From positions 1 through 45,721 of the forward strand of contig JAZDPL010000077.1 of assembly GCA_043797665.1 (NCBI GenBank): a stretch of DNA of 45,721 bases, given 5' to 3'. The position numbers were made by a program, and so were the translations under genes. Shown here piece after piece: positions 18,868 through 42,573 of this stretch. How positions within the stretch are numbered: the first letter of the stretch is position 1; the number at the start of each line of letters is the position of its first letter. The notes beneath the pieces are model-generated. The model saw nothing but the letters and a program-made list of their open reading frames with translations, was not told where the DNA came from and did not search any database. The DNA comes from Candidatus Omnitrophota bacterium (GTDB lineage Bacteria > Ratteibacteria > UBA8468 > MWAK01).

Positions 18868-19932
18868 TTACTTACAACGCAAAAAACATTCTTCCGGGAT
18901 ACCCAGTTCCTTACATAATCCCATCGCCTCCTTAACATACCGTTTGGTCAACGCGTCCCGGTAGCCGCTGACTGTGGGAAAGTCTTTATATTTTCTTAAA
19001 TGGGCCTGAGCCTTTTGCCAGAAAAGTTCCCGGACATATTTCCCGAAGAGAGAAGCCAGTGCAATTAGAAAAGACGAATCTTCGCCATCTTCAAGGTAGG
19101 AAATTTTGCCAACCGTATCCAGCCCAACGTTAGGGGTTGTCATCTCTGGCAAATAGTTAGTTTTATTCTGCGACAACCCCTCAATAAAGTAGGAGGAAAT
19201 TTTCTTATCCTCCCTGACTTTTACCACGGAGTGTTCTGCGCCAAAGGTCAGAGAAAGCATTGGGAAATAATACCGCATCCCGCCGACCTTCCCTAAGGAA
19301 GCCCAAAAAGGTTCGCCATCTAAAGACTGACGCACGAGATTCAAGCCAGCCTCGACGACCAGGTCTGACTTGTTCTTCCCCCCACTTTTTAACGCGCGGT
19401 TGAATAACGAAGGACAAACCACCAGAGACCGGACTCTTTCCAGAGATACCCCGGCTCCGTTAGCCTTCTCCTTTAACTCTGCCGCTAAGTCCATAATCTT
19501 TCTTGAACGGTCCTGGCTCAGGTTCAAAGGGATGTCGGTCTCCCAGCAAAACGCAATCTCTCCTTTAGGCAACCCTTTATCCAAACAAGGAAATTGAACG
19601 TTTAAAACCGGGTTTGCCAGTATCCGGTCTAAAAATTCATCCGCGGTCTCCGGAATATACCCCTCAGAAAGATAGAAAAACCCAAGGACCATATCTTCCG
19701 CAGAGCGGGCCCGTTTCCGACTATTCCCAAACACCAGTTTACTGTCACAGACAAAAGGAGTTTCGCCCGGCTGTTTTTCCAGATTCAGGAGGAGCCACAA
19801 ATCAGGCACTTCTTCAGTCAAAAACCCGGAAGAATTAAGAAATGCTGAAGGAGACGTTACAGAAACCGCAGTAACCACCAGCGGTCCTAAGAGCGGTCCA
19901 TAACCGTTCTCGTCAACTCCAATCAGTCTCAT
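18868..19932 (-). CDS. RNase HII-like protein
   Basis: IGVDENGYGPLLGPLVV, DSK, IALASLFGKYVRE, SGYRD. Confidence 0.65.
   Translation of the reverse strand: MRLIGVDENGYGPLLGPLVVTAVSVTSPSAFLNSSGFLTEEVPDLWLLLNLEKQPGETPFVCDSKLVFGNSRKRARSAEDMVLGFFYLSEGYIPETADEFLDRILANPVLNVQFPCLDKGLPKGEIAFCWETDIPLNLSQDRSRKIMDLAAELKEKANGAGVSLERVRSLVVCPSLFNRALKSGGKNKSDLVVEAGLNLVRQSLDGEPFWASLGKVGGMRYYFPMLSLTFGAEHSVVKVREDKKISSYFIEGLSQNKTNYLPEMTTPNVGLDTVGKISYLEDGEDSSFLIALASLFGKYVRELFWQKAQAHLRKYKDFPTVSGYRDALTKRYVKEAMGLCKELGIPEECFLRCK
19133..19180 (-). mobile_element. Internally deleted family A remnant (48 bp), in-frame
   Basis: tta-ggggttgtc...ctctggcaaatagttagttttattctgcgacaacccc-tca; peptide GLSQNKTNYLPEMTTP. Confidence 0.85.
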
Positions 19933-19961
19933 ACGTACAATATTGTGGATTGGTGCAACTT

Positions 19962-20029
19962 GTAGGGGCTTGATTTATCAAGCCCGCGGGTCGGATAAAT
20001 CCGACCCCTACGTAAAAATATTTAATTCG
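19962..20029 (+). repeat. Family B GTAG REP doublet
   Basis: Near-identical to 8697-8764. Confidence 0.85.
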
Positions 20030-20035
20030 TTTGCA

Positions 20036-20620
20036 TCAGGTAATGAGAAAAATACTGTAGTCGGCAAAAAGGTTCGGAAAGAGACAGACCCGACGGTGAC
20101 CCCAAAGATGAAAATCCGAAAGCACTTTTAGATTTTCCTGCCGGCAGAAAAGAATAAAATCTTTAAGACTTAAGAAATGAAGGTTTGGCGTATCGTACCA
20201 CTGGAAAGGTAAGGAACGGTTAATCGGCACCCTTCCCAGAAGGGAGATTTGGAAACGTGCACCTAAATGGCAAAAATTGGGAAAACCGACCACCACCTTT
20301 TCACCCACCCGCAACGCTTCACTAATAACCGTCCTGGGGTGACGGACTTCGGACAGGCTGCCGTTGAGAATAACGTAATGGAAACTCTTATCCGGATAAT
20401 CGGAAAGCCCTGCATCCAAATCGCCGTGAAGAACATTGACTCCGCGTCTGACACATTCCGCAATCGCTTTCTGGTCTATTTCAATCCCCTGGCCCTTAAT
20501 ACCCTTCCTTTTCGCCAGGAGAGCCAGCAGTTCGCCGTCACCGCAACCTAAGTCCAGGACACTGCTTCCTTCGGTTACAATATCAGAAATAATCCTGTAA
20601 TCCGGTCTGATTTTTTCCAT
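20036..20620 (-). CDS. metW: Methionine biosynthesis protein MetW
   Basis: RPDY, VLDLGCGDG, FPNF.H, LPFQWYDTPNLH; follows metX. Confidence 0.9.
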   Translation of the reverse strand: MEKIRPDYRIISDIVTEGSSVLDLGCGDGELLALLAKRKGIKGQGIEIDQKAIAECVRRGVNVLHGDLDAGLSDYPDKSFHYVILNGSLSEVRHPRTVISEALRVGEKVVVGFPNFCHLGARFQISLLGRVPINRSLPFQWYDTPNLHFLSLKDFILFCRQENLKVLSDFHLWGHRRVCLFPNLFADYSIFLIT

Positions 20621-20625
20621 AGATA

Positions 20626-20658
20626 CTGGATTCCGGCTTACTATCCGCCGGAATGACA
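20626..20658 (+). repeat. Family C palindrome between metX and metW
   Basis: ctggattccggc-ttactatcc-gccggaatgaca. Confidence 0.75.
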
Positions 20659-20660
20659 GA

Positions 20661-22055
20661 TTACTGACGCTGGGCATCTAAAAAGTTCTTAACCAATCGG
20701 CCTTGTTCTTCCATCTCCACCAGAAAAGCATCGTGGCCATAGTCAGACGGTATTTCACAATAGGTAACCCCGGCACCGTGGCGTTTCAATACCCGGACAA
20801 TCTGTTCTGAATCGGATGGCGGATAAAGCCAGTCGGAACTGAAACTTAAGACCAAAAATTTCGTTTTAATCCCGCGGAAAAGGTCCCGTCCATAATCAGC
20901 AATTAAATCAAAGAAGTCCATCGCCTTGGTGATGTAAAGGTATGAATTGGCGTCAAAACGCTGGACAAAACTGTCTCCTTTGTAGCGCAGATAACCTTCC
21001 ACTTCAAAATCGGCGGTAAAGTCGAAACTATACTTTTCTTTGCCATTAGGGGCTGTCGCAGAATAAAGTTGACTATTTGGAGTCCCGGATTTGAGGTTAG
21101 TGCAAGGCGCGACGAAGGCTCTGTGCCCACTGTGGCACATAGTCGAGGAACAACGCCGCAATGACCCAAAGATGGGACTCCCCGAAGGGCCAGGCCGATT
21201 TTGGGCTGCGACTGCGTCGCTCATCGCTTCCGTACCACAGGGGGTACGCAAGCTTCTTCGCTCCTTGTCTCGCTCCAAAATCGCCTCTGGCAAATTGTCA
21301 ACTTTATTCTGCGACAGCCCCTTATGCCGGCGGCCGAACTTTTCCTCCATTGAGGCGTCGCTCATATAGGTAATGTGGCCGATCATCCGTGCCAGGGCTA
21401 AACCTTTTGCCGGTACACTCTTTCCGTAATAGTCACCGCGGCTCCAGTCCGGGTCAGACATAATGGCCTGCCGGCCCACCTCATCAAAGGCGATCTGCTG
21501 GGCGGAGTGGCGCAAAGTAGTAGCCACCGGAATAGCGGACTGCACCATCTCCGGATAGGCGGCCACCCACTGCAAAACCTGCATCCCGCCCATGGAACCT
21601 CCGGCAATCGCATAAATCTTTTTTATACCTAAATGTTCCACCAGAAACCTCTGGCAATTGACCATATCGGCGACGGTGATGATGGGAAAGGTCAAACCAT
21701 AGGGTTTTCCGGTAACCGGATTGACGGAAGAAGGCCCGGTACTACCCCGGCATCCCCCCAGAATATTAGAACAGATTACAAAATAGTGGTTGGTGTCAAA
21801 AGGTTTGCCCGGTCCGACCATTGGCTCCCACCAGCCAGTCTTACTTTCTCCTTTGTGGTAGCCTGCCACATGGCTGTCACCGGATAGCGCATGGAGAATA
21901 AGGATTGCGTTGGACCGGTTATTATTCAACTGACCGTAGGTCTCATAGGCTAAGGTAATTGGACCGAATTGCTGACCGCTTTCCAGCAATAGTCCTTCCG
22001 GTGCTTGAGCAAAAACAAGATATTTTGTCTCAATAAAACCAGCGTTTTTTTCCAT
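20661..22055 (-). CDS. metX: Homoserine O-acetyltransferase with a 92-aa in-frame MITE insertion
   Basis: HALSGD, GGSMGGMQ, ARMIGHITY, RFDANSY, SDWLYP, YGHDAFL. Confidence 0.93.
   Translation of the reverse strand: MEKNAGFIETKYLVFAQAPEGLLLESGQQFGPITLAYETYGQLNNNRSNAILILHALSGDSHVAGYHKGESKTGWWEPMVGPGKPFDTNHYFVICSNILGGCRGSTGPSSVNPVTGKPYGLTFPIITVADMVNCQRFLVEHLGIKKIYAIAGGSMGGMQVLQWVAAYPEMVQSAIPVATTLRHSAQQIAFDEVGRQAIMSDPDWSRGDYYGKSVPAKGLALARMIGHITYMSDASMEEKFGRRHKGLSQNKVDNLPEAILERDKERRSLRTPCGTEAMSDAVAAQNRPGPSGSPIFGSLRRCSSTMCHSGHRAFVAPCTNLKSGTPNSQLYSATAPNGKEKYSFDFTADFEVEGYLRYKGDSFVQRFDANSYLYITKAMDFFDLIADYGRDLFRGIKTKFLVLSFSSDWLYPPSDSEQIVRVLKRHGAGVTYCEIPSDYGHDAFLVEMEEQGRLVKNFLDAQRQ
21049..21321 (-). 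mobile_element. Family A copy 4 (273 bp), in-frame in metX
   Basis: TIR ggggctgtcgcagaataaagttgac; TTA duplicated on both sides. Confidence 0.92.
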
Positions 22056-22065
22056 ATTTAAGGGG

Positions 22066-23067
22066 CTAAAGAGTCAGGTTCAATCGGTCAATCTCAGACT
22101 GTTCGGCAGGCGTTACCAGTATTTTTTTTACCGGTCTGCTGCAACCGTATTTGACCAGAACTGATTTATCCTCATTATCCGAATATCGCGCGGTAATCCG
22201 GGCCGCCATTTCAACCGCCCTTTTCGTCTTTGGTCCCTGAAGGATGGTAAAAGGACTTCCGCAATCCGGAACTTCAAAGATATAGTCCGTTTTAAGTTTC
22301 TTCTCTTGAATCATCTGATTTTCTAACTGGTTCCGGCCCACGATAACCTTATTCTTCCCGAACCGAAAGTGGCGGCCGGTCTTAAGAAGAAAGATATCGT
22401 CCCACCCGATCGCTTTTTTATGCCGGAAAAGGTCCCTGAGTTTCTTGGCGAACTGTTCCATAGTCAAAAGACATCCGCCGGCCGGACAGGCGTAATTTTC
22501 TATCTGCCTTTCTTTTGCCAGCGCCAACTGGACCTTTCGGCTCCGGCCTTCAATCGCCATCAGATTGTCCCGGTCGACCCAGCCTTTCTTCTCCGCCTCG
22601 GTTGGCGGCAAAATCTTTGCCGAGAGCGGTCGTAAAATCTTACCCTCCAGACCTGATTCCCTTTCGATGAGTTTTAAGGCCCGCAGGTACTGGGACATCG
22701 GCCGCTGTCCCAAAACTTCACCGGTGACAAAAAATTTCGCTCCGAATTTCTGCGCGATATTTTTAGCCTTTTTCAACATAAATATCCGGCAGTCAATACA
22801 GGGGTTCATCCCGGAACCATAACCAAACTTTGGTTTCCGGATAACCGCCAAATAATCCTTACCTTTAGAAACTACCCTGAGTGGTATGCCAATCTGCCGG
22901 GATATCTCCGCAGCATAACACTTTCCGTTGCGGTCGCACTGACAAAAAGGTGAGGTAAACTTTATGCCCAGCAGGTCTATTCCCTGGTCCAGAACCATCC
23001 TGGCTGCCAGGGCCGAGTCCAAACCCCCGGACAAAAGTACCACCGCCTTAATTCTTCTTGTTCCCAT
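22066..23067 (-). CDS. ThiI/MnmA-like PP-loop tRNA thiolase with DUF814-like C-terminus
   Basis: SGGLDS, NPCIDCRI, TGEVLGQRPMSQ, PAGGCLLT, GRHFR. Confidence 0.8.
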   Translation of the reverse strand: MGTRRIKAVVLLSGGLDSALAARMVLDQGIDLLGIKFTSPFCQCDRNGKCYAAEISRQIGIPLRVVSKGKDYLAVIRKPKFGYGSGMNPCIDCRIFMLKKAKNIAQKFGAKFFVTGEVLGQRPMSQYLRALKLIERESGLEGKILRPLSAKILPPTEAEKKGWVDRDNLMAIEGRSRKVQLALAKERQIENYACPAGGCLLTMEQFAKKLRDLFRHKKAIGWDDIFLLKTGRHFRFGKNKVIVGRNQLENQMIQEKKLKTDYIFEVPDCGSPFTILQGPKTKRAVEMAARITARYSDNEDKSVLVKYGCSRPVKKILVTPAEQSEIDRLNLTL

Positions 23068-23226
23068 TTACAAGTCGCACCTCGCTTCGCTCGGAGCTCT
23101 CCAAAGGGAGTTTACACTCCCTATGGCGGTCACTAACGTTCCCTGTTACCCTCTCTACTGAGCAAGGGGGTTCTTCGCCACCCCCTTGGCAATCCCCCCC
23201 CTTGAACCTACTAAGGATATAAGTTC

Positions 23227-24159
23227 CTATAGGTTCAAGTCGGCAAAGAGGGCGGTGCTCAAATAGCGTTCACCGGTATCCGGGAAGACCACCACGACCA
23301 ATTTCCCTTTACTCTCCGGCCGGCCGGCTGTCTGCAGCGCAACCCAGGCCGCCGCACCGCTGGAAATTCCGGCTAAAATCCCTTCTTCTTTCATCAAACG
23401 TTTGGCGGTCGTTATGGCGTCATCATTTCCCACGGTGATAACCTCATCAATTACCTTGCGATTCAAAACGTCCGGAATAAAACCCGCGCCGATTCCCTGA
23501 ATCTTATGCGGACCAGGCTGACCTCCGGAAAGAATCGGTGAATCCTCCGGCTCCACTGCGATAATCTTAAGGCCAGGTTTCCTCTTCTTCCAGACCTCAG
23601 CCACGCCGGTAATGGTACCGCCGGTACCTACACCGGAGACAAAGATATCCATCTTGCCGTCGGTATCCCGCCAGAGTTCTTCCGCAGTGGTCTTCCTGTG
23701 AATCCGGGGGTTGGCGGGATTCTTAAACTGCTGAGGAATAAAAGAATTTCTGGTCTTTCGCGCAATCTCCTCTGCTTTATCCACCGCACCCCGCATTCCT
23801 GAAGTACCTGGCGTCAGTTCCAATTGCGCACCGAATGCCTTCAAAAGGGTACGCCTTTCCATACTCATCGTCTCCGGCATCGTTAAGATAAGCCGGTATC
23901 CGCGGGCTGCGCAGACAAACGCCAGGGCAATGCCGGTATTGCCGCTGGTGGGTTCAATAATAACCGTATCCTTATTAATCAGACCCGCTTCTTCCGCCGC
24001 ATCAATCATCGCCACGCCGATCCGGTCCTTAACCGAACTGCAGGGATTAAAAAATTCCAATTTCGCCGCTACCTCTGCCTTCAGACCTTCGGTTACCTTA
24101 TTCAGTCTTACCAAAGGTGTGTTGCCTACCAACCCGGTAATATCTTTCGCAATCTTCAT
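23227..24159 (-). CDS. cysK: Cysteine synthase A
   Basis: [45 protein letters not shown]. Confidence 0.95.
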
Positions 24160-24175
24160 TCTCCGACTCCCATTC

Positions 24176-25492
24176 CTACCGCTGACTGGCAGAAAGCGCC
24201 TGGTCCAAATCAGCGATAATGTCTTTAACGTTCTCCAGCCCTACGGAAAGACGTACGTAATCTTCGGTAACACCGGTACCAACCCGTTCTTCCGGAGTCA
24301 ACTGCTGGTGGGTGGTAGTGGCCGGGTGGATAATCAGGGTCTTGGCATCACCGATATTAGCCAGATGGGAAATCAGATTCACGGAATCAATCAACTTCCG
24401 ACCCGCCTTTTTACCTCCTTTGATACCAAAACCAATTATGGCACCAAACCCCTCCTTTAAAAACTTCTTTGCCCGGCTGTAGTCCGGATGGTTGGGTAGA
24501 CCGGGATAATTAACCCAGTCAACCGCAGGATGTCTTTCCAGCCAGCGGGCAGATTCAAGAGCGTTTTTAGAATGCTGACGCACCCTTAAGGGAAGTGTCT
24601 CCACCCCCTGGAGAATTAAAAATGAATTAAAGGGAGAGATACAGGGTCCGATGTCCCGAAGTAATTGAACTCGTGCTTTCAGAATATAAGCCAGACCGGG
24701 AACCTTCGCTTTCTTATGGTTGCCAAAGGCGGTCCAGTAGGATAGACCACTGTACGAGGGGTCTGGTTCGGTAATCTCCGGGAATTTACCGTTTGCCCAG
24801 TTAAAAGTACCACCCTCAATAATCGCACCGCCCAAACTGGTGCCGTGACCACCTAAAAATTTGGTCAGGGAATAGACCACGATGTCCGCACCTAATTTTA
24901 TTGGCTGTAAGAGCGGCGGCGGAGAAACCGTGTTGTCAATAATAAAAGGAATCCCATACCGGTGGGCTACTTCCGCGATTCCCGGGTAATCGTCAACGTT
25001 GTTTTTGGGGTTGCCGATGGATTCGGTGTAAAGAAGCCGCGTATTCTTATCAACAGCCTTAGCAAAATTTTCCGGTTTCGAAGAATTGACAAAACGGACC
25101 TCAATCCCCATCTTGGACAAAGTGTAGTGAAAAAGGTTATAGGTACCGCCGTAGAGGTAAGTGGTGGAGACGATATTCTGACCTGCCTTAGTAATGTTGA
25201 GTATTGCCAAGAAAATTGCCGCCTGCCCGGAAGAGACCACTAAACCACCTCTGCCACCGTCCAGTTCTGCCAGTCTCTTTTCCAAAACGTCGGTGGTTGG
25301 ATTCATAAGCCGGGTATAAATGTTCCCGAATTCTTTTAAAGCAAAGAGGTTCGCGGCGTGTTCGGTGTTCTTAAAAACGTAACTTGTGGTCTGATAAATC
25401 GGGACCGCCCGGGCACCGGTTACGGAATCAGCTTCCTGTCCGGCGTGTAAAGCCTGGGTTTCTATCTCCTGTTTCGCTTGTGCCTTTTTCAT
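24176..25492 (-). CDS. metY: O-acetylhomoserine sulfhydrylase
   Basis: [46 protein letters not shown]. Confidence 0.9.
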
Positions 25493-25512
25493 CTTTTTCT
25501 TCTCCTTGTCTA

Positions 25513-26394: not shown

Positions 26395-26410
26395 ATCCAC
26401 CTCCCGTCCT

Positions 26411-26785
26411 TTATCCAACGTTATTCTCAATACATTCAATAAGTTCTTTTTTACGCACCGGTTTGGCAAGGAAAGGGTATCCGCCGATAACCGGGCAACC
26501 GGGCGTTACCTCGTCTTTCGTTGCCATGGCGGTTAAGAAGACAATCGGGATATCTTTGGTGCCTTCGTCTTTCTTTATCTGAGCGGCAACTTCGTCACCA
26601 TTCATACCCGGCATAATTATATCCAGCAATATCAGGTCCGGTTTAAACGATTGTGCGGTCAAAAACCCCTGCGTCGCTTTGTTCTCTATCCTGACCTCGT
26701 ACTGCCCGGTTGCCTCTAAGTTAAGTTTTACCACCCGGGTAAAATCCTCTTCGTCATCAATAATCAGAATCCTTTTCTTTCCCAT
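26411..26785 (-). CDS. Single-domain response regulator
   Basis: ILIIDDE, PDLILLDIIMP, VFLTA, AKP. Confidence 0.9.
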   Translation of the reverse strand: MGKKRILIIDDEEDFTRVVKLNLEATGQYEVRIENKATQGFLTAQSFKPDLILLDIIMPGMNGDEVAAQIKKDEGTKDIPIVFLTAMATKDEVTPGCPVIGGYPFLAKPVRKKELIECIENNVG

Positions 26786-26796
26786 ATACCCTCCAA

Positions 26797-30764: not shown

Positions 30765-30877
30765 GTAGGGGGCGGATTTATCCGACCCGCGGGCTCAATA
30801 AATTGAGCCCCTACACTTCTTGTCTCGCTCCAAAATCACCTCTGGCAAATAGTCGATTTTATTCTGCGACAGCCCCC
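30765..30877 (-). repeat. Family B REP doublet (30765-30814) abutting a truncated family A end (~30817-30877)
   Basis: ttgtctcgctccaaaatcacctctggcaaatagtcgattttattctgcgacagccccc-tta matches the end of copies 3/4; supplies the bioC stop. Confidence 0.8.
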
Positions 30878-31674
30878 TTAGCCTGGCAAAAGAATACCTG
30901 GTAGGAGACGGAAATCTCTCCAAATCGTGCTAAATAAACCTTTTCGGTCTTTTCCACCAATCCCCGGGTCCAGAGAAAGTTAGGGGCTCCCTTATCGGCT
31001 CCCTGGGTGCCCGTATACTTTATCGCACGCAACAACGCCAACAAAGACGGGTAGGTTTCCTGGAATGTTTGCTCCCGTACCGTAACTTCACGGAAGATTC
31101 TTCGCAGTATCATTTCCAGCCTTTCCCTTTCTAAGAAATGACCGGCAACGAGCGAAATACCCTTATCCAAAGATTCTCTTAAGGACCAGCCTAATTCAGA
31201 GAAGGTTCCCGGACCAAAGGTGGAAAAGGTAAGGAGACCATCCTTAACAAGTATCTCTTTATACGCCCGGAGAGCCCTTTCCAAATTTTCAAACCACTGG
31301 AAAGCGGCGTTGGAAGTAACGAGGTCAAATCGTCCGGTTATCTTAGGGGACAGCCCCTTAATCTCCTCGGCGTCTCCAGCCAAAAACTCTATCCGTGGTT
31401 CCGGTAACTTCTTTTGGGCTACTTCTATCATCTTTCGCGATATATCCACCGCCTGGATACGCGCCTCCCCGAATTTTCGGCTTAAAAGAACGGTATAATT
31501 ACCCGTCCCGCAGCCTATCTCCAGAATATTTTTGATTCCATCCGTTGGCAACCTCGTAATAAGCCTGTCTCCTGTCAGACGCTGGATAGCGGCGTATTTA
31601 TCATAAAGGTGGCTGTGCCGGGAAAAGTTTCTTTCCATTCTTTTTTTATCCAGGCTGCTTTGTCGAGTAGACAT
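30859..31674 (-). CDS. bioC: Malonyl-ACP O-methyltransferase
   Basis: FSRHS..YD.YA..Q, ILEIGCGTG, SNAAFQW, STFGPGTF.EL; within the bio operon. Confidence 0.88.
   Translation of the reverse strand: MSTRQSSLDKKRMERNFSRHSHLYDKYAAIQRLTGDRLITRLPTDGIKNILEIGCGTGNYTVLLSRKFGEARIQAVDISRKMIEVAQKKLPEPRIEFLAGDAEEIKGLSPKITGRFDLVTSNAAFQWFENLERALRAYKEILVKDGLLTFSTFGPGTFSELGWSLRESLDKGISLVAGHFLERERLEMILRRIFREVTVREQTFQETYPSLLALLRAIKYTGTQGADKGAPNFLWTRGLVEKTEKVYLARFGEISVSYQVFFCQAKGAVAE
30983..30991. mobile_element. Putative 9-bp family A scar in bioC
   Basis: tta-ggggctccc-tta; peptide KGAP. Confidence 0.5.
31346..31357. mobile_element. 12-bp family A scar in bioC
   Basis: tta-ggggacagcccc-tta; gacagcccc is the exact TIR end; peptide KGLSP. 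Confidence 0.65.
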
Positions 31675-31684
31675 TGTAACCTTT

Positions 31685-32830
31685 CTAATCCCGGGGGATT
31701 TCATCCATTAAACCGTCTAAAATCTCTTGATTGTGAAAGAAGGTCAAAGAAAATCTCAGACGTGCCTGCCCCCGGGGCACGGTCGGCGGCCTGATAGGCA
31801 AAACCCAGTACCCTCTTTTCTGCAGTGTCCCGGCAGCCCTTACCGTTTCCGGATTCTTGCCGATAATCAGCGGTACAATCTGTGACTCTCCCTTTACCAT
31901 AAACCCCTTCTTTCTCAGGGTTTCCCGAAAATAGCCCGCCCGGCTCAAAAGTTCTTTCCGACGATAAGGCTCTTCCCTGAGCAGGCTGATACTGGTCAGG
32001 TTGCAGGCTGCCACCGCCGGCGGTAGGGCGGTGGAGTAGATAAAACTCCGGCAGGTATTTATCAGATATTCAGACACCTTCCGTGATGCAGCGAGATAAG
32101 CGCCAAAACTACCCAGGGCTTTACTGAATGTCCCCATAATAAGATCTATCCTGTCCGTTAGCTCTTCTTCTTCCACCACACCGGAACCATTTTTCCCAAA
32201 GATTCCGGTGGCATGGGCTTCATCAACCATAATCCGGCATCCGTATTTATCCTTCAGAACCACTAAATCTTTCAGAAAAGGCCTGTCACCATCCATGCTG
32301 AAAATAGTCTCAGTAACGATTAACGCCTTTTTGAACTTTCCCCTTTCTTTCTTCAGAATCTCTTCCAGGTGGTTGGGGTCGTTGTGTTTAAAACGGAATA
32401 AGCGGGCTCCGGAAAGGAGAATCCCGTCAATGATACTGGCGTGGTTCAGACGGTCGGAAAAGATGGCATCACCTTTAGAGTAGAGGGCACTCAAAATACC
32501 GACGTTGGCCTGGTAACCGGAATTGAAGACCAGCGCACTCTCCTTATTTTTGAACCGGGCGACCTCTTCTTCCAAACGATGGTGTATTTCCAAATCACCA
32601 CTCAAAAGGCGGGATGCGGAAGCGCTCGTTCCGAATCGGTCTAACGCTTCTTTTGCTGAAGCGAGGAGTTTAGGATGGTTTGCTAATCCAAGATAATCGT
32701 TTGAAGAAAAATCGATAAATTCTTTAGTTTTAAAATATACCCTTCCGTTATGGCGCCGGGATATCGGTTTAAGGCACCGCAATAATCCTGCTTCCTCCCG
32801 CGACTTCAAAAAATTTTCTAATTCTGCCAC
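31685..32830 (-). CDS. bioF: 8-amino-7-oxononanoate synthase
   Basis: FSSNDYLGL, SGYQAN, DRLNHASIIDG, DEAHATG, GTFSKALG, IRPPTVP. Confidence 0.95.
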   Translation of the reverse strand: MAELENFLKSREEAGLLRCLKPISRRHNGRVYFKTKEFIDFSSNDYLGLANHPKLLASAKEALDRFGTSASASRLLSGDLEIHHRLEEEVARFKNKESALVFNSGYQANVGILSALYSKGDAIFSDRLNHASIIDGILLSGARLFRFKHNDPNHLEEILKKERGKFKKALIVTETIFSMDGDRPFLKDLVVLKDKYGCRIMVDEAHATGIFGKNGSGVVEEEELTDRIDLIMGTFSKALGSFGAYLAASRKVSEYLINTCRSFIYSTALPPAVAACNLTSISLLREEPYRRKELLSRAGYFRETLRKKGFMVKGESQIVPLIIGKNPETVRAAGTLQKRGYWVLPIRPPTVPRGQARLRFSLTFFHNQEILDGLMDEIPRD

Positions 32831-33954: not shown

Positions 33955-33989
33955 GTAAATTTACATAAGAATTGTGTACGTCAAATTAT

Positions 33990-34967: not shown

Positions 34968-34982
34968 TCTGCACCCCCCTGA

Positions 34983-36170
34983 TTAAAATTGAGTTGCCAC
35001 ACCTATGGCAAACTGGTTGTCGTCAATTGAGGCTTTACCGGGCCGGTGATTATCGTTCCAGGAATATTCGGTCTTAACCGTAATCAACTTGCTGAATTTA
35101 TAACCTAAAACGAAACTGGTCCGGTCATATTGGTCAGCGCTGCTTACGCTATTTAAAGTACTGGTAACGCCGTCATCCAGTTTGATGGTACTATACCTCA
35201 AGCCGGCGTAAGTCTTTGGGGTAATACTAAAAACCGCCTGGATGAAATAGTATTCCCCCTGGCGGTCAGTAACGTCTGTCGCATCATCCTCAAACTGACC
35301 GTAGACGCCGGCAAATTCTGCCGGACCCAGGGCGAGTTTGGTATTAAATTCCCAGATATTACGCTGCCAGTCGGTCGAGCCGGTTGGTGCCGTGCTCCCT
35401 CCGGCAATCGTCATCTCTGAGTTGTTGTTATCAAGGTCTCCGCTGGTGTAATAACTGGCTGAAAGGTACCAGGGTTTAACCGGTCTGCCGAAGATTTTGG
35501 CAGCGATTGACTTACTGCTGGTATTGTCACTTCCGGTACCCGTATTACCGTTAGCCAAATCTACGTAATAACCGAAGGTATCGGGTATAAAATTACCGTA
35601 AAGTTCTATTCCGTCGTCGTATCCGGTAACGTTGGCCGCGGAATTGCTGATAAACCGGCCCTCAACCGGGTTATTAGACCAGGTCTCCTCGCCAAAATCT
35701 ATCTTGGTCCTCCCGATGCGAACCCGGCTCTTCTCATCTCCGGGTATAATCTGGTTCCCCTGAAGGTAGCAGTAGTCCACGCTGTTAAACGCCGCATTGT
35801 TCAGGTTAAACCGGTTCACCACCTCTATCCTCTCCCAGGGTTTCCAGGTCAACTGAACCTTCGCGTCCGGCATTTCAAAGGAACCGTTTTCGTAAGTGGA
35901 ACCAAACCTTTCGCTGTCATAATAACCGATAAAAACCCTTCCCTTTATCGTAAGTTCCGAACCCGCAGTAGACAGAGTTACCGGCTGTCCTGCCTTTGCT
36001 TCTTTTGTCCCGGTCAATTCCTTTTCTAATTTCTCAATACGCTGCATCATTCCCTGAACCTGAGCCTTCAAAACCTTTATTTCCGCTTCCGGATCTTCAG
36101 CCCGGACATAGCCCGCAAACATTAAAACTAAACTCAAAACAACACCTAAAAACAAACTTTTCCTCCACAT
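34983..36170 (-). CDS. Outer-membrane porin-like beta-barrel with N-terminal coiled coil
   Basis: Signal peptide, coiled coil, alternating beta strands, C-terminal Phe. Confidence 0.7.
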   Translation of the reverse strand: MWRKSLFLGVVLSLVLMFAGYVRAEDPEAEIKVLKAQVQGMMQRIEKLEKELTGTKEAKAGQPVTLSTAGSELTIKGRVFIGYYDSERFGSTYENGSFEMPDAKVQLTWKPWERIEVVNRFNLNNAAFNSVDYCYLQGNQIIPGDEKSRVRIGRTKIDFGEETWSNNPVEGRFISNSAANVTGYDDGIELYGNFIPDTFGYYVDLANGNTGTGSDNTSSKSIAAKIFGRPVKPWYLSASYYTSGDLDNNNSEMTIAGGSTAPTGSTDWQRNIWEFNTKLALGPAEFAGVYGQFEDDATDVTDRQGEYYFIQAVFSITPKTYAGLRYSTIKLDDGVTSTLNSVSSADQYDRTSFVLGYKFSKLITVKTEYSWNDNHRPGKASIDDNQFAIGVATQF

Positions 36171-36189
36171 CGCTCCTCCTATGGGGTTG

Positions 36190-36651
36190 CTATATCACGT
36201 AATTTACAAGATGTTCTTTCCTCTCCAGAAGTTCCAGCGTCCTCTTCGCCACCTCTTTCAGGGAAATGTTGTCCACAATATCAGCGATGGCGTTTCGTAC
36301 ATCCCGCATAATACCGTACAATCCGCAGGACGATTCGTTGGGGCAATCCACGTGCGCGGTGACGCTGACACAGTTCACCGGCGCTAACGGTCCGCCGATT
36401 ACCCGGATTATCTCTCCCAAACTTATCTTTTCCGGTGCTCGTGCCAGCGAATAGCCTCCGCCAACCCCGCGCTTGCTTAACAGAATACCTTTATTCTTAA
36501 GATGAATAAGTATCTGCTCCAAATATTTCGGCGGAATGTTCTCCCGCCTGGCGATATCGCTGATAAGTGTTATCGGCGTGCCCTTCTCATAATTAATCGC
36601 CAACCTTATCAGCGCCCTTACCCCGTATTCCCCCTTTTTAGAAACATTCAT
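36190..36651 (-). CDS. Rrf2 family transcriptional regulator (three Cys, IscR/CymR-like)
   Basis: YGVRAL, IPPKYLEQIL, SKRGVGGGY.L, C-X8-C-X5-C. Confidence 0.9.
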   Translation of the reverse strand: MNVSKKGEYGVRALIRLAINYEKGTPITLISDIARRENIPPKYLEQILIHLKNKGILLSKRGVGGGYSLARAPEKISLGEIIRVIGGPLAPVNCVSVTAHVDCPNESSCGLYGIMRDVRNAIADIVDNISLKEVAKRTLELLERKEHLVNYVI

Positions 36652-36664
36652 CCTAATTCCCTGT

Positions 36665-36713
36665 ATTCTTGATTATCAATGTAGAGTATAGCACAGAAAA
36701 AAATATAAATCAA
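36665..36713 (-). promoter_or_regulatory. Rrf2 operon promoter with overlapping IscR-type operator
   Basis: TTGATT-17-TATACT with TG extension; ATACTCTACATTGATAATCAAGAAT matches the IscR type-1 consensus at about 19/25 positions by eye. Confidence 0.55.
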
Positions 36714-36714
36714 G

Positions 36715-36948
36715 TCAAGTTTGCTTTTTTCTTTCCTTCCACTTCGTTTCGCCGAAACATTCCCGGGCGGCCGGACACCAGTCAATACAGGATGGTGCCT
36801 TCTCCCGATATACCAGGGTGCGACACTTCGGACACCTCCTCCTTATCTCGTCCGAGAATATCTCCACTCCGTAACCGCACTTCGGACACCTGTAGAGCGC
36901 GGCAGTCAGGTTCTGCCGGCTCTTACCCGGGCAATGGACCTCTATCAT
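36715..36948 (-). CDS. Small Cys-rich zinc-ribbon protein
   Basis: CPG, CPKCG..VEIFSDE, CPKC, PSCIDWC..AREC. Confidence 0.7.
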   Translation of the reverse strand: MIEVHCPGKSRQNLTAALYRCPKCGYGVEIFSDEIRRRCPKCRTLVYREKAPSCIDWCPAARECFGETKWKERKKQT

Positions 36949-36966
36949 ACGAAAATGCCAATAATC

Positions 36967-37041
36967 TGTCATCCTGACCCTCGAGCGAAGCGAAGGGGAA
37001 GGATCTAAAAGATTAGATTCTTCGTTTCACTCAGAATGACA
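36967..37041. repeat. Family E inverted repeat
   Basis: tgtcatcctga...gaaggatct / agattcttc...tcagaatgaca. Confidence 0.75.
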
Positions 37042-37063
37042 CAGCGAATCAAGTTTGGAAAAT

Positions 37064-38734
37064 TTAAGATTTGTTTAGGATTTCGGCTAAATCTTTCTCC
37101 GGAATACTGATGGGTTTGATACCAAAATTTTCTGCCAGCACCTTTAAGACATTGGGCGAAACGAAGGCCGGCAGCGAAGGACCTAACCGGATGTTCTTGA
37201 TGCCCAGCGAAAGCAGGGTTATCAAAATAACCACCGCTTTCTGCTCATACCAGGAAAGGATTAAGGAAAGTGGTAATTCATTGACTTCACATCCAAAAGC
37301 CTTCGCCAAACCTACCGCAATGGTAATCGCCGAATAGGCGTCATTGCACTGGCCGCAATCCAGAAGCCTGGGGATATCCCCAATCATCCCGAAGTCAAGC
37401 CGGTTGAACCGGAACTTTCCGCAAGCCAGGGTCAGAATTACGCAGTCAGAAGGAACTTTCTCCGCAAATTGGGTGTAATAGTTCCGGCCCGGCTTGGCAC
37501 CGTCGCACCCGCCGATCAGGAAAAAATGCCTGACCGCACCGGACTTCACCGCGGAAACAACCTTGTCCGCAAGTCCCAGGACAGTATTATGTCCAAACCC
37601 CACTAATATCCGTTTTTCCTCTTTATCCTCAGGAAATCCGCTTAATGACAACGCCTTTTCAATCACCCGGCTGAAATCTTTCTTCTCATTCCGACTGGCT
37701 ACGTGTTCTATCCCGGGCCAACCTACCAGACCGGTGGTAAACATCCGGTCCTGATAGGATTTTTGCGGTCGCTGAAGGCAATTGGTCGTCATCAGAATCG
37801 CGCCGGGCAGTTCATTGAATTCCTTCTGTTGATTCTGCCAGGCAGTCCCGTAGTGACCAACGAGGTTGACATATTTTTTCAGTCCGGGATAACTGTGAGC
37901 CGGAAGCATTTCTCCGTGGGTATAGACATTAACTCCTTTCCCCTGCGCCTGTTCTAACAGATGTTCCAAATCCAGCAAGTCGTGTCCGGAGACGATTATG
38001 GCCGGACCTTTCTTTACGCCCAATAAAACCTCAGTCGGAACCGGGTGTCCAAACCGGGTGGTGTGCGCCTTGTCCAGCAGATCCATACACTTGAGGTTCA
38101 CCTTACCTAATTCCATATTCAAAGAAATGAGTCCTTCCGCGGAAAGGGTATCATCCGCGAGACCGGCTAATCCTTTATAAAAAAAGGCGTTAACCTCCTC
38201 ATCTTCATACCCCAGGATTGAAGCGTGGTCAGCGTAGGCAGCCATTCCCTTCATTCCGTAAAGGAGTAATTCGCGCAGGCTCCTGACATCTTCGTCAATC
38301 CGGGTACCGGAGAGAATACCGACTGCTTCTGCCTGTTTCAGGAGTTCCTCTCCACTCCCAGCCGGGACCCAATCTGCCGGTTCCGGAAGTTTTCCTGTAA
38401 AATCTTTGCCTTCTTTTTGTCGGTATGCCTCCAGAAACCTTTTCTTTATCTCCTCTTTAATCTGGTACGTCTTCCAGACAACCTTTTCCAGTTTAGCCGG
38501 GTCAAAGTTGACGTTGGTAATGGTAATAAAGAGACATTCCTTGATAAAACGGTCAGCCTCCGAATCAATAACGCCTAACTCCCTGGCTAACCGGCCATAG
38601 ACCGCAATCCCTTTTAGGCCATGGACGATTAAATCCTGAAGTTTGGCTGCTTCCGGGTTCTTTCCGCAGACTCCGGATATCGTACAACCCTTCCCTTCCG
38701 CGGTCTGTTCACACTGCCTGCAATACATATTCAT
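37064..38734 (-). CDS. hcp: Hybrid cluster protein (hydroxylamine reductase)
   Basis: CRQCEQT...GC...GVCGK, SGHDL, YTHGEMLPAH, GGCDG, LACGKFR, GQCNDAY, LSWYEQKA. Confidence 0.96.
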   Translation of the reverse strand: MNMYCRQCEQTAEGKGCTISGVCGKNPEAAKLQDLIVHGLKGIAVYGRLARELGVIDSEADRFIKECLFITITNVNFDPAKLEKVVWKTYQIKEEIKKRFLEAYRQKEGKDFTGKLPEPADWVPAGSGEELLKQAEAVGILSGTRIDEDVRSLRELLLYGMKGMAAYADHASILGYEDEEVNAFFYKGLAGLADDTLSAEGLISLNMELGKVNLKCMDLLDKAHTTRFGHPVPTEVLLGVKKGPAIIVSGHDLLDLEHLLEQAQGKGVNVYTHGEMLPAHSYPGLKKYVNLVGHYGTAWQNQQKEFNELPGAILMTTNCLQRPQKSYQDRMFTTGLVGWPGIEHVASRNEKKDFSRVIEKALSLSGFPEDKEEKRILVGFGHNTVLGLADKVVSAVKSGAVRHFFLIGGCDGAKPGRNYYTQFAEKVPSDCVILTLACGKFRFNRLDFGMIGDIPRLLDCGQCNDAYSAITIAVGLAKAFGCEVNELPLSLILSWYEQKAVVILITLLSLGIKNIRLGPSLPAFVSPNVLKVLAENFGIKPISIPEKDLAEILNKS

Positions 38735-38795
38735 AACCCGCCTCCAGTTTTTAAATCTTTTAACAGCGTCCTGATGGTATAATTTCCTGGCGATG

Positions 38796-40892
38796 TCAAG
38801 TAGCGGTCGGATTCATCTGAGTATTTACCAGAAAGATGTTGATTTCCGTCAGGACTTTTGCCGGTGTAATCTCTTTCCAGCAGGAAAATCCGGTGGGACA
38901 ATCGGTTTTGAGGCAGGGGCTGCAAGGAAAACCGGAGGAAATGATACGGTAAGGGGTCTGGTAAGGACCATACCGGCGCCAGTCGCCCGGTCCAAAGAGC
39001 ACCGCTACCGGACACTTGACCGCACTGGCTAAGTGGACCGTTCCGGTGTCGTTGGAAACAAGGAGTTTTGCACCGGAAAGGAGGGCGACTAATTGCGCCA
39101 GGGTGGTCTGACCGGAAAGGTTGATGAATTTAATGGAGAGGAATTGAACAAGTTGTTCCGCGAAGGGTACTTCATCCTTATCCCCTACTATTACAGAAGG
39201 CAGGCGGTATTTCTGCCAGATTAACTCAGTCAGTCGGGCAAACCCTTCTGGTGACCACCGCTTCTTATCCCAGCGGGCACCCGGATTTAAAACCACATAA
39301 TTATACTTTTCCAGACTAAACCGCAGGAACGTCTCTTCCAGCCAGGCATGGTCAATATTATTTTCCGGGAAATAGAGCGTTTTATCATCAGGCAAAGGCA
39401 AGAAATAACCCAACAACCTCTGCCACCGGTCTGCCTCGTGTTCTCCTTCCTTAGGGGTTGTCCCCTTAGGTCCAAAACAAGTCCGGAGATAGAAGTTTGC
39501 CTTCCTTTTGGCTCCACTCCTTATTCCGAAGATTGACTGCCGGAAATCAAAGATTAAACTGTATCTCTCCTGTTGGATACTTTTCAAAAATGACTCTTTT
39601 TCTCCTTTCCCTGACTTCTTGTCGTAGTAAAATATTTTGCGGAAATAGGGGTGGTTTTCAAAATAACCCGCAGACCTGCGGTCGGTAATGATGTCAATGC
39701 CCGCCATCGGGAAGTTTAGCCGAATTGCCCGGTAGGCGGGTGAAAGAATCAGGCTATCCCCTAAACAACTAACCCCCACCACTAAAATTTTCTCTTCCCG
39801 GAGAAGGGTGCCTGCCTTTTGACTTACCCTTTCTGTTTCCGCCAGGACTTTTTCCGGCATAATCTTAACTAAATCAGACACCATTTCCCTGGTAAGTTCT
39901 TCTAACGTGATAACATTGATATATCCTTCTTCCGATAAATCCTGTAAAGCCCGGTCAAAAACCAAAGGCCTTTTTCGCCTTCGTTCAACACGCAGAACGA
40001 CCGTCCTCCTGCCGGAACCGGCTGACTCGGAAACCATATTGATGCTGTCCTCAGTGGTCAAAATTATGTCCGCCTTTGCCAGAAATTCTGTGACCGGATT
40101 GGCCCTGGTTTCCCGGTACAGCACAAGATGGAACCGCGCCGAGTCACCTAACTTTCCTCTCAAAGCCTGCTCCACCTCTTTTGGAGTCCGGCGGCTGGTG
40201 GTGATATAAACCTCGGCGGGTAAGTTTTCCGCAATTTCAATCAAACGGGTGGCAAGTTCTTGAGCCCAATTTTTAGAAACTACGTAATTTTTGTCATTGC
40301 CGCCGATTAAGACCGCAATTCGGGTCGGATAAATCCGACCCCTACCAACCGAATCTGTAGGCGCGGGGTCCCCAATGTCAAATTGGGGGTTCCCTACCAT
40401 CAAGGTAGGGGCTTGATTTATCAAACCCGAAGGTTTTATCCGGTTGGTAGCACCTTTGATTACCATCATATTCGGAGCAGGAACATCTCTGCGGTGCCGC
40501 CAGAGGTCATGTTCCGGAATTACAATAAGGTCAAAAAGGGACAGCCGGATAAGGTCAGGCCAGAGTACCTGAATGCTATCAGCCAGAAACGCCCGGCTCA
40601 AAAGAAGGTTTATGGAAGACAGCCTTCCGCCGGCGGAAATTACCAGGCAGGGTTTTGGACATTTTGGTACTAATTCATTTTCTGTAAAAACGAGCGATTT
40701 AAGCAAAAAACGTATGGAGGAAAGAGACAAAAGAGGGGTCAGATTGGCAGTTAGGATTAGAATAAGACGCGGTAAAACCCCCAGGGAGGGAATCGTGATT
40801 ACTTCAATCTCTGCGGAAGGAATCCTTTCGGCAATTCCGACCGCCTGATTAAAGTTGCCCCGGTTACCATCGTCCAGAACAACAATCTTCAT
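38796..40892 (-). CDS. Fusion of an ELM1/GtrOC1-like domain and a GT9 heptosyltransferase-like domain
   Basis: N-terminal DG..G..NQ..G, FDLIVIPEHD, AVLIGG, TTSRRTP, TEDSINMVSE; C-terminal LGD, NPGARW..KRW, SNDTG.VHLA, LFGP. Confidence 0.8.
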   Translation of the reverse strand: MKIVVLDDGNRGNFNQAVGIAERIPSAEIEVITIPSLGVLPRLILILTANLTPLLSLSSIRFLLKSLVFTENELVPKCPKPCLVISAGGRLSSINLLLSRAFLADSIQVLWPDLIRLSLFDLIVIPEHDLWRHRRDVPAPNMMVIKGATNRIKPSGLINQAPTLMVGNPQFDIGDPAPTDSVGRGRIYPTRIAVLIGGNDKNYVVSKNWAQELATRLIEIAENLPAEVYITTSRRTPKEVEQALRGKLGDSARFHLVLYRETRANPVTEFLAKADIILTTEDSINMVSESAGSGRRTVVLRVERRRKRPLVFDRALQDLSEEGYINVITLEELTREMVSDLVKIMPEKVLAETERVSQKAGTLLREEKILVVGVSCLGDSLILSPAYRAIRLNFPMAGIDIITDRRSAGYFENHPYFRKIFYYDKKSGKGEKESFLKSIQQERYSLIFDFRQSIFGIRSGAKRKANFYLRTCFGPKGTTPKEGEHEADRWQRLLGYFLPLPDDKTLYFPENNIDHAWLEETFLRFSLEKYNYVVLNPGARWDKKRWSPEGFARLTELIWQKYRLPSVIVGDKDEVPFAEQLVQFLSIKFINLSGQTTLAQLVALLSGAKLLVSNDTGTVHLASAVKCPVAVLFGPGDWRRYGPYQTPYRIISSGFPCSPCLKTDCPTGFSCWKEITPAKVLTEINIFLVNTQMNPTAT
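39454..39465. mobile_element. 12-bp family A scar in the GT9 domain
   Basis: tta-ggggttgtcccc-tta; peptide KGTTP. Confidence 0.65.
40321..40429. repeat. Array of three GTAG REP units translated in-frame
   Basis: cgggtcggataaatccgacccctac and gtaggggcttgatttatcaaacccg are the two halves of family B, with a third GTAG..CTAC unit between. Confidence 0.85.
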
Positions 40893-42006
40893 TAAGGGCG
40901 TCTTTTAAAGCCTGGTTAATCCGGCTGATTTGGGATACGTCCATCCGGACTTTAACCTCAAGAGCCACTGCCCGGCTTAAATACTCTTCGGTCCGGGGAT
41001 AGACACCGGCACCAGTCAGTTCTCGGTTGACCTGATAATGCCAGTAGTTAAGGGTTGCCGGCGTAATACCGGATTTCTGGAGTCTTTCTTTTACTTTTTC
41101 CGCCTTCTCCGGCGTTGGTGCCAAAAAAGTTAAGAAAGTAGCACTATCCTCTCTGTCTGCCGGTAAAGACCGCCCACTAAATCCGGCGGGCAGATTTATG
41201 CCTTCCATCATCCGGGCCCGGTTGGCACGGAGAGAAACCAACATCTCCGGAAGTTTCTCTAATTGTGCCAGACCAAATGCAGCCAGAATTTCGGAAAGTC
41301 TGAAGTTGAAACCGGTTCCTTCTTTAGGTTCTTTGCCCCGCGGTAACGCTAAATTATGGATATGACCGTGGTCGTGGAAACGGTCTGCTCTCCGGTAAAT
41401 CTCGGCCTTGTCGGTAACTACCATCCCGCCTTCACCGCAGGTCAAAAGTTTAACCGAGTCAAAACTGAAAGCAGAGACATCGCCCAGCGTTCCTACAAAT
41501 TTACCTTTATATCTGGCGCCAATTGCCTGACAGGCATCTTCCAAAACAAAAAGTTTATGCTTACGGGCAATACCCAGAATCGCATCCATGTCTGCGGACG
41601 CACCCATCATATGAACCGGTATTATTCCCTGTGTCCGGACAGTAATCCGCTTCTCTAAATCGGTCGGGTCAATATTCAGGGAAGAATCTATCTCGGCCAG
41701 GACCGGCTTCGCACCGGATTCAATCACCGATTCCAGGGTAGCGATAAAGGTATAGGCGGGGACGATTACTTCCGCACCCGGTTGTAACTCAAGAGCCGCC
41801 AGTGCGGTTCTTAATGCGGCGGTGCCGGAAGAAACCGCCAGGGCATAGCCTGTGCCCAGGTAATCTTTAAAAGCCTGTTCAAAACGAAGGACGTATGATT
41901 GGCTTACTTCTTTGTCGCTGAATCCGTAGCGAAAAATGCGTTTTTTGCGGATAACGTCCAGAACCAGTTCTTCTTCCCGGCTATTAACCGTCTCTATTCC
42001 GCCCAT
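40864..42006 (-). CDS. DegT/DnrJ-family aminotransferase (KdnA-like)
   Basis: SSGTAAL, PVHMMG, EDACQA, FSFDSVK..TCGEGG, HDHGH, FNFRLSE. Confidence 0.85.
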   Translation of the reverse strand: MGGIETVNSREEELVLDVIRKKRIFRYGFSDKEVSQSYVLRFEQAFKDYLGTGYALAVSSGTAALRTALAALELQPGAEVIVPAYTFIATLESVIESGAKPVLAEIDSSLNIDPTDLEKRITVRTQGIIPVHMMGASADMDAILGIARKHKLFVLEDACQAIGARYKGKFVGTLGDVSAFSFDSVKLLTCGEGGMVVTDKAEIYRRADRFHDHGHIHNLALPRGKEPKEGTGFNFRLSEILAAFGLAQLEKLPEMLVSLRANRARMMEGINLPAGFSGRSLPADREDSATFLTFLAPTPEKAEKVKERLQKSGITPATLNYWHYQVNRELTGAGVYPRTEEYLSRAVALEVKVRMDVSQISRINQALKDALNEDCCSGRW

Positions 42007-42009
42007 AAT

Positions 42010-42573
42010 CTATAAGATGTACTTTAAGGCGCCCATAAGGTCCGGTGCGATATGGTCCGGTCTTATGGACCAGGACTCTGTCTCTTTAGCCATAATGGTC
42101 TTCCCGGAAAGAACCAGAATCGTAAGCAATCCCGCCTGCTGACCGGCGATGATGTCGGTCTCGCTGTCCCCGACCAGATAAGCGTAACTGTTTTTAATAT
42201 CTAATTTAAACTCGGCAGACGCTCTTTTGATTAAACCGGTTCTGGGTTTTCGGCAGAAACACCCATCTTCTTCCGTATGGGGACAGTAATAAGACGCCCA
42301 TACCTTTCCACCCGCGTCTGCAATCGCATCCACCATTTTATGGTTAATATCTTGAAGGGTTTGGTTGGTATAAAGACCCTTGCCTACGCCGGACTGGTTG
42401 GAAACGATAAAAACGACGGCACCGGCTTGATGAAGTATCCGTAACGCTTCTTTCGCACCGGGTAAAAATTTAAACTCGTCCCACGACTTGGTGTAGTCGT
42501 CGGCGTAAAACTGGCTGATGACACCGTCCCGGTCCAAAAAGACGATTAGGGGTTGCCTTACCGTTTGGTCCAC
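42010..42573 (-). CDS. gmhB: D-glycero-D-manno-heptose 1,7-bisphosphate phosphatase
   Basis: FLDRDGVI, SNQSGV, CPH....C.CRKP, VGDSETD. Confidence 0.88.
   Translation of the reverse strand: MDQTVRQPLIVFLDRDGVISQFYADDYTKSWDEFKFLPGAKEALRILHQAGAVVFIVSNQSGVGKGLYTNQTLQDINHKMVDAIADAGGKVWASYYCPHTEEDGCFCRKPRTGLIKRASAEFKLDIKNSYAYLVGDSETDIIAGQQAGLLTILVLSGKTIMAKETESWSIRPDHIAPDLMGALKYIL
42549..42557. mobile_element. Putative 9-bp family A scar at the rpsI stop / gmhB N-terminus
   Basis: tta-ggggttgcc-tta; the second TTA is the rpsI TAA stop. Confidence 0.5.

Follow-up and report, generated by a model that had tools for sequence, protein, structure and literature searches.

In-frame remnants of a miniature inverted-repeat element in protein-coding genes of a Ratteibacteria genome

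The subject of this work is a contig of 45,721 nucleotides from a Candidatus Omnitrophota bacterium (assembly GCA_043797665.1, contig JAZDPL010000077.1), analysed over its whole length and hereafter called the window, together with a family of transposable elements of the miniature inverted-repeat type (MITEs) whose full copies and short remnants lie in and between its genes. The source genome (G000) comprises 2.69 Mb in 93 contigs, is 86% complete and, by the gene calls made for this analysis, contains 2,269 genes (90% coding). An earlier note on this DNA, made from the sequence alone, had described five short stretches of the window as what is left of inserted elements, and all five are present with the coordinates, lengths and flanks that it gave. 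These remnants and their host genes are:

19133..19180: 48-bp remnant between TTA and TCA, in which the left tip meets the right end at the microhomology GTC; adds 17 aa to an RNase HII-like protein
18868..19932, minus strand: gene of the RNase HII-like protein (weak PF01351 match, N-terminal residues 4-28 only)
30983..30991: 9-bp remnant in bioC between TTA and TTA, read as KGAP; the weakest of the five
31346..31357: 12-bp remnant in bioC between TTA and TTA, read as KGLSP; in a loop between two strands of the model
30859..31704, minus strand: bioC, containing three family-derived pieces
39454..39465: 12-bp remnant in a GT9 domain between TTA and TTA, read as KGTTP
38796..40892, minus strand: gene of an ELM1-like + GT9 fusion
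42549..42557: 9-bp remnant between TTA and TTA, at the rpsI stop codon and inside the gmhB N-terminus, read as RQPL
42010..42573, minus strand: gmhB, with a GTG start overlapping rpsI

The 48-bp remnant is an exact prefix plus suffix of the full copy C12:12981, with a 3-nt overlap, and is translated as E-GLSQNKTNYLPEMTT-P. The remnant at 42549-42557 is read in another phase, as R-Q-P-L, and its TAA is the rpsI stop codon, while the junction of the 9-bp KGAP remnant has no microhomology. In the BioC model (mean predicted local distance difference test score, pLDDT, of 91), both scars are predicted to sit in loops, KGLSP in loop 100-115 (pLDDT block 78) and KGAP in loop 222-236.

The full-length element

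The source genome holds 24 full copies, 261-327 bp long (mostly 273 or 303 bp), whose alignment contains no transposase-sized open reading frame (ORF); the family is a MITE. The copies have 31-bp terminal inverted repeats (TIRs), with 27-31 matches between both ends within one copy, share the end pattern GGGG(T/C)TG-NNN-(C/A)A(G/C)AATAAA, and are flanked by a target duplication that is mostly TTA or TAA. The full element folds end to end and its arms are internally self-similar, and empty sites with a single TAA are present in G000 where relatives carry a full copy. The following belong to the window:

21049..21321: full copy, 273 bp, in frame in metX (+92 aa, KG...ATAP)
20661..22055, minus strand: metX
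16684..16956: full copy, 273 bp, in frame in the unannotated ORF 16245-17420
15953..16255: full copy, 303 bp, whose tip gives the RGC-stop end of ORF 16245-17420
6497..6771: full copy, 275 bp, at the ddl/folC junction, giving the RGC-stop end of Ddl (tip 6761-6771)

Elsewhere in G000, full 273-bp copies lie in frame in a ComEC-like gene (C17:20099) and in a translational-GTPase-family gene (C80:8692). The long end pattern is also found at 29 ends in G001 (same genus) and in all five sister-genus genomes; it was not found in G002 or G004, which belong to the same family as G000, and among more distant genomes two of 56 have one match. Where it occurs in named records, these bear the label Ca. 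Ratteibacteria, Omnitrophota or uncultured bacterium.

Several features of the copies themselves may be recorded here. The length variants of 297, 303 and 327 bp differ by hairpin modules of 24 and 30 bp, both multiples of 3, and the 30-bp module resembles free-standing repeats at 7664-7694 and 11199-11229 of the window. Over their outer 19 bp the two arms of one copy differ on average at 0.25 positions (they are perfect in 21 of 24 copies), compared with 3.6 for arms of different copies, and the same arm subtypes recur across genera. At C15:14865-15182 of G000 a single TTA serves both a 12-bp remnant and the full 303-bp copy beside it, which reads as a re-insertion into an old target duplication. 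Finally, the 275-bp copy at C55:25822-26096 and the 304-bp copy of locus L183 have one flank in common and different arm subtypes, reflecting either repeated insertion or replacement.

Enrichment of remnants over chance

Stretches of the form X-GGGG..CCCC-X (X being TTA or TAA) occur 21 times genome-wide, against 0.87 expected. Two of the 21 were set aside as no remnants: one is a 54-bp stretch whose interior is not TIR-like, and the other, C85:26590, is part of a tRNA, its identical copy in G001 lying within tRNA-Ala. Inside called genes there are 14 remnants scoring above 12 bits, compared with 0.5 and 0.7 in two codon-shuffled nulls (10 shuffles each) of the kind that the earlier note had asked for. 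Under a stricter test, by which one single full copy must supply both the left and the right part of the stretch exactly, 29 remnants of at least 11 bp were retained against 0.125 (8 shuffles). Below 11 bp, those with a perfect TTA/TAA duplication number 5 against 0.375 and those with imperfect flanks 17 against 15.6; the 9-bp class is thus weak when its members are taken individually, and the imperfect-flank matches are noise. Since the interior letters match the end subtypes of full copies, the remnants are pieces of the element. Direct-flank remnants number 20 in G000, 10 in G001 and none in G004, with one match in G002, the last two genomes being both without the long TIR.

The set used below has 37 members (27 above 14 bits, seven of at least 13 bp with one flank mismatch, and three longer ones). 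Matches whose flanks differ at 2-3 positions were excluded as near noise (23 against 10.7), as was C56:7702, first taken for a 9-bp remnant and in fact a one-ended tip; the TAA...TTA hairpins that other genomes of the class contain are repeats with palindromic flanks and not remnants of this MITE.

Relation of the remnants to full copies

The remnants retain both outer ends and both target copies and have lost the interior, in support of the earlier proposal of insertion at TTA/TAA followed by internal deletion. Exact products of one deletion in a full copy account for 28 of the 37, and the stepwise path from 273 to 48, 12 and 9 bp, also proposed there, is not supported in general, a second step being suggested at one site only. 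Mean microhomology at these 28 junctions is 2.04 nt, compared with 1.12 +/- 0.22 for random breakpoints scored identically (a value reached in none of 300 simulations), and 11 of them have at least 3 nt, against 3.2 expected. As the arms are self-similar, short direct repeats are available for such junctions. An identical 21-bp product recurs in G000 and G001, and in three cases a full copy and a remnant share the same flanks: 273 bp in L214 and 16 bp at C55:8814 of G000, 269 bp in L148 and 61 bp in L035, and 270 bp in L196 and 39 bp in L024. In the second pair the remnant has perfect arms and the full copy imperfect ones, which suggests arm correction by template switching.

Reading frame

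Remnant length depends on where the remnant lies. After curation, all nine gene-interior and all four N-terminal remnants have lengths that are multiples of 3, compared with 6 of the 24 at gene ends and in spacers (interior against ends and spacers, Fisher p = 1.3e-4). This value becomes 1.5e-3 if the cobU case is counted as interior, the gene caller placing that remnant inside the gene, but upstream of the Pfam domain and of a later Met. Among the recognisable genes inspected, no out-of-frame remnant was found mid-gene. The view of the earlier note that every length is a multiple of 3 is consequently correct for the window but not for the genome (19 are and 18 are not), and its view that only frame-preserving products survive is supported inside genes but not at their ends or in spacers. 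The systematic addition of 4-17 aa loops across the proteome, which it also expected, was not borne out, since scars in called genes amount to the nine interior and four N-terminal cases among 2,269 genes (about 0.5%), five of the 13 being in this window.

The phase is equally restricted. The only stop-free frame through a full copy is R2 (K-G...P), open in 11 of the 24 copies, with none of the other five open in any; the four full copies within called genes are all in this frame, and all nine interior remnants are in the same phase. The seven short interior remnants tested would be stop-free in all eight combinations of phase and orientation, and the phase used corresponds to 27% of usable targets (p = 1.2e-4). 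Judged from the sequences, the simplest reading is that each interior scar passed through a translated full-length stage. The peptide form K-G-x-(x)-P that the earlier note gave to the scars applies to KGLSP, KGTTP and KGAP, but not to RQPL in gmhB, nor to gene ends, where the final codons and the stop often come from an out-of-frame remnant or a one-ended tip (RGC-stop, GVAEQ-stop).

Orthologues and alleles

Orthologues were compared at 11 coding sites (C21:10731 and C55:54582 being outside this set), and the gap expected at each peptide equals the remnant plus 3 bp exactly at seven of them; at three it is approximate or allelic, and the remaining site is PfkB. The G001 orthologue of the RNase HII-like protein is shorter by exactly 17 aa at the remnant, the 4 aa of gmhB are absent in all three orthologues (G001, G004, G002), and exact gaps of 5 aa in HGD-D (2/2 orthologues) and 7 aa in a Mur ligase (7/7) were found, as was a 6-aa gap in a metallophosphoesterase-like protein (4/4; 18 bp in G001). 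At the GT9 site 39454, the G001 orthologue (84% DNA identity) is without exactly 15 bp and its empty site is TCA, the loops of the distant G004 and G002 aligning loosely. The 92-aa insert of metX is absent from all 119 listed homologues, none of which exceeds 420 aa, and from the closest one (P0122, 92% identity, 373 aa); among these homologues only empty sites, and no remnant allele, were found.

The KGLSP site of bioC is occupied by 12 residues here and by a 7-residue spacer in 110 of 120 BioC sequences. The four closest relatives (82-85% identity) have KGLSATAP (P0002), KGTTP (P0003) or an empty site (P0004, P0005), and P0003 carries a further KGATPP a few residues upstream. By sequence these alleles appear to be different collapse products at one position. 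At the KGAP site the spacer is 12 residues here and 8, 8, 9 and 9 in the same four relatives. One contig of run X1 (depth 4.9), in which the element's first 34 bases are linked via five end letters to 30989, would represent a 42-bp in-frame allele of this site; in the sequencing runs, for which contigs only were used, at most 7% of words matched, and the 40 related genomes contain one true BioC orthologue only. In cobS the flanks are shared with G001 but the 12-mer that they enclose differs there (KGTTP vs KGLPP), through either independent collapse or inversion plus one change.

Candidate transposases

The ends and target of the family (GG ends, 3-bp TTA/TAA) were compared with the IS5-family ISL2 group and PIF-Harbinger, of which GG termini and a 3-bp TTA/TAA target are the signature, and these features are present; PF13359 (DDE_Tnp_4) and PF05598 (DUF772) are matched in none of nine family genomes, all incomplete. 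As autonomous partner, PF01609 loci were rejected because their ends differ, PF13751/PF13586 because the match is one 77-aa fragment without these ends, and PF01797 because none of its eight loci is flanked by such a pair of ends. Neither the 47 metagenome loci nor the genome matches listed have paired ends at a distance above about 305 bp. Two viral scans gave 0 and 1 unrelated match, and no plasmid, phage or Rfam match for the element was obtained. TIRtrons and GTAG repetitive extragenic palindromes (REPs), as described in PMC3733652, are characterised by a GGGGWSAS motif or a GTAG tag and by a tyrosine transposase flanked by the repeat. Membership in them was rejected, the ends being GGGG(T/C)TG and the PF01797 loci unflanked.

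One-ended tips and neighbouring repeats

About 24 one-ended tips of 16-70 bp were seen (e.g. C66:1284, C1:21621, C50:55462 and C38:16338 of G000), often ending a gene (GVAEQ-stop, GVAKQ-stop, RGC-stop) directly before the next one. At C75:19656 a solo tip puts TTGAAT at a distance of 18 bp from a TATAAT that precedes an ATG (seen by eye), and tips may thus lend a -35 box. Two one-ended pieces belong to the window:

30806..30876: one-ended fragment, 71 bp, giving the KGAVAE-stop end of BioC and abutting a GTAG-type repeat
9032..9047, minus strand: solo TIR tip, 16 bp, in the K-G frame (KGLPNN) inside ORF 8771-9544

Other repeats also enter genes of the window. The ELM1-like domain of the GT9 gene contains, in frame, a GTAG-type REP-like repeat (40321-40434), of which the G001 form is 48 bp shorter; G001 also has a 15-aa insert of its own further on. 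A third repeat family (GGATTCC...GGGAATGAC type) occurs twice inside folC, at 5108-5160 and 5724-5776 (3' end and mid-gene).

Discussion

The remnants are collapsed copies of the 261-327-bp MITE, and we put at roughly 80% the probability of the following cycle as their origin. A non-autonomous 273/303-bp element with 31-bp inverted ends inserts at TTA/TAA and duplicates its target, as empty and filled sites show. Its one stop-free frame, legible as KG...P, is entered if TAA occupies positions 3-1-2 of the codons in the coding strand, and it is probably through tolerance that only copies in this frame persist inside genes (as in metX, +92 aa), the others lying at stop codons and in spacers. In single-stranded DNA the element would fold end to end and replication would slip between 1-5-nt direct repeats of the two arms, deleting the interior without a transposase and leaving tips and target copies in place, the way Tn10 undergoes nearly precise excision; the products are those observed, and the proposed mechanism is slippage rather than break-and-join. 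Inside genes, purifying selection would then purge frame shifts and leave loops of 4-17 aa, while at gene ends and in spacers products of any length would survive, as the pattern of lengths suggests.

A number of observations weigh against this account. The 3-bp duplication is perfect in only 14 of the 24 full copies, nine of the 37 remnants are not exact one-deletion products, five of the 28 junctions are without microhomology, and two more pairs of full copy and remnant (302 vs 6 bp, 274 vs 11 bp) differ in that their flanks are altered. The data had been inspected before the remnant sets were defined, and the direction of change, from full copy to remnant, is read from sequence comparison. 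The frame significance rests on curation, which moved chance fusions (clpP-lon, gatC-accA) to gene ends: an uncurated test, based on an open frame across the rebuilt empty site, is not significant (6/8 vs 13/29, p = 0.23), and neither is a second one (8/14 vs 11/23, p = 0.74), because rebuilt empty sites fuse separate genes by chance and shadow frames are counted. The expectation of the earlier note that length modulo 3 separates coding from non-coding sites holds for the curated classes only. Among the orthologues, two distant ones are one residue off (cobS in G003, shorter by 6 aa vs 5 predicted; C14:7185, 9 aa vs 8), the PfkB remnant, at residue 3, gave no clear gap outcome, and the KGAP spacer is only one residue above the 11 found in 105 of 120 BioC sequences. 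Finally, the profile searches described above, in genomes 70-91% complete, found no transposase carrying these ends.

The same life cycle would result if the interior were lost not by polymerase slippage but by a hairpin or cruciform cut (made by a hairpin nuclease of the host or by a transposase whose reaction aborts) rejoined at microhomology. Microhomology is compatible with both chemistries, and the many one-ended tips with deletion into the flank, together with the five of 28 junctions that have none, are what a break might leave. Clean cut-and-paste excision, according to textbook knowledge, removes the tips, which are kept here, and the closely matched arms of each copy (0.25 vs 3.6 mismatches) suggest template switching on a hairpin. 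Copy-choice is moreover the mechanism reported for Tn10, as summarised in PMC12524634, and we consider break repair possible but rather improbable. A distinct question is whether the common K-G...P phase stems from peptide tolerance or a wider target preference instead of a translated full-length period. Lys, Gly, Thr and Pro are, by textbook knowledge, loop-friendly, the sites are nine only, and gmhB shows another phase persisting at an N-terminus; the frame used nevertheless coincides exactly with the open frame of the full element, the same orientation is retained in the 48-bp remnant, four full copies lie in called genes in that frame, and the R-G and L-G phases would likewise yield Gly/Pro-rich loops. 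This origin of the phase is possible, and we judge it unlikely.

The series might also run from short to long, the short units being mobile themselves, in the manner of REP-like mini-palindromes, or serving as targets for a later long body. Arms that co-vary within copies, identical 12- and 21-mers at unrelated sites and the remnant abutting a full copy at C15:14865 could all be read in this way. Empty orthologous sites, however, are a single triplet without palindrome, the remnants are asymmetric, of many lengths and in some cases (48, 61 bp) include body sequence, one bioC site holds three different remnants, and direct inserts of 9-21 bp would be tolerated in all phases, whereas the interior ones use one; a short-to-long direction is accordingly very improbable in our estimation. 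There remains coincidence, by which the 9-12-bp stretches would be chance matches. Short matches with imperfect flanks are indeed at noise level (17 vs 15.6), KGAP combines a junction without microhomology with a weak gap, and one motif match lies within a tRNA. The enrichment over three nulls and the exact orthologue gaps at 31346, 39454 and 42549 refute chance for the remnant set, to which we grant it practically no probability, whereas for the stretch at 30983 alone it is an unlikely origin, though one to be reckoned with.

Collapse of full copies by internal deletion being the preferred account, its interest lies in the traceability of the products. Short insertions are common in proteins, and where they came from can usually not be traced; in the present case related genomes contain the donor, the empty site, intermediates and several end products, and the origin of single loops of 4-17 residues can be read from the sequence by a search rule (element tips between duplicated targets, in one frame). 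For annotation there is a warning, as a gene may owe a false extension of its N-terminus, or a short tail at its C-terminus, to such tips. Tentatively, and with less than even probability, the family might even be said to run a natural two-stage insertion mutagenesis of the host proteome, in which the single open frame makes a 92-residue insert tolerable, the self-similar arms bring about its deletion at set points, and the K-G...P loop records the full stage. Should the element maintain its open frame and arm microhomologies as traits, and should other MITE families behave alike, scars recognisable in DNA would make up a measurable part of the 3-8-residue insertions in bacterial proteins that are so far unexplained.

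Comparison with known systems

The excision footprints of the plant elements Ac/Ds, Spm and PIF add a few codons to working genes; they arise when a transposase excises the element and are made up mostly of target bases, whereas the MITE scars consist of the element's own two tips. With the IS5 ISL2 group and PIF-Harbinger the MITE agrees in end and target signature, their DDE_Tnp_4 and DUF772 transposases being without a match in the nine family genomes. Nearly precise excision of Tn10 is said to have been studied originally by Ross, Swan and Kleckner (1979) and by Foster et al. (1981), and reportedly leaves a short remnant. Its mechanism is given as hairpin-assisted copy-choice (d'Alencon et al., as summarised in PMC12524634). 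The likeness is that an element with inverted repeats undergoes, helped by a hairpin, a deletion from one short direct repeat to another and that its outer ends stay; unlike those of Tn10, the MITE products are natural, fixed in genomes, read as protein and formed at many junctions instead of one main one.

Decay by deletion of the Rickettsia palindromic elements (RPEs) has reportedly been published by Amiri et al. (2002). In-frame inserts of palindromic repeats are known for RPEs, BOX, BRE and REPs, and old RPE-7 inserts of 63-84 bp are described in PheT (PMC10969869, PMC3184786, PMC1779305 and PMC3733652). Like RPEs, by their description, the MITE is a structured repeat in frame in unrelated housekeeping genes and absent from orthologues; unlike the RPE and REP inserts as there described (about 20-80 aa), it shows a tip-retaining collapse to 9-21 bp, an allelic series and frame memory. 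Pentapeptide scanning with Tn4430, as described in PMC2734569, likewise removes the bulk and leaves tips plus target duplication, 15 bp or 5 aa, which is also the commonest scar size here, but it is engineered and performed in vitro with KpnI, whereas the MITE scars arise spontaneously, vary in length and have passed through selection. In the literature searched, which did not extend to subscription journals and supplements, we found no description of a natural series from MITE to scar with allelic remnants and frame memory. The finding is real and well supported, is made of known parts and has a modest scale: in-frame MITE insertion and nearly precise excision, known separately, are here joined into one natural cycle.

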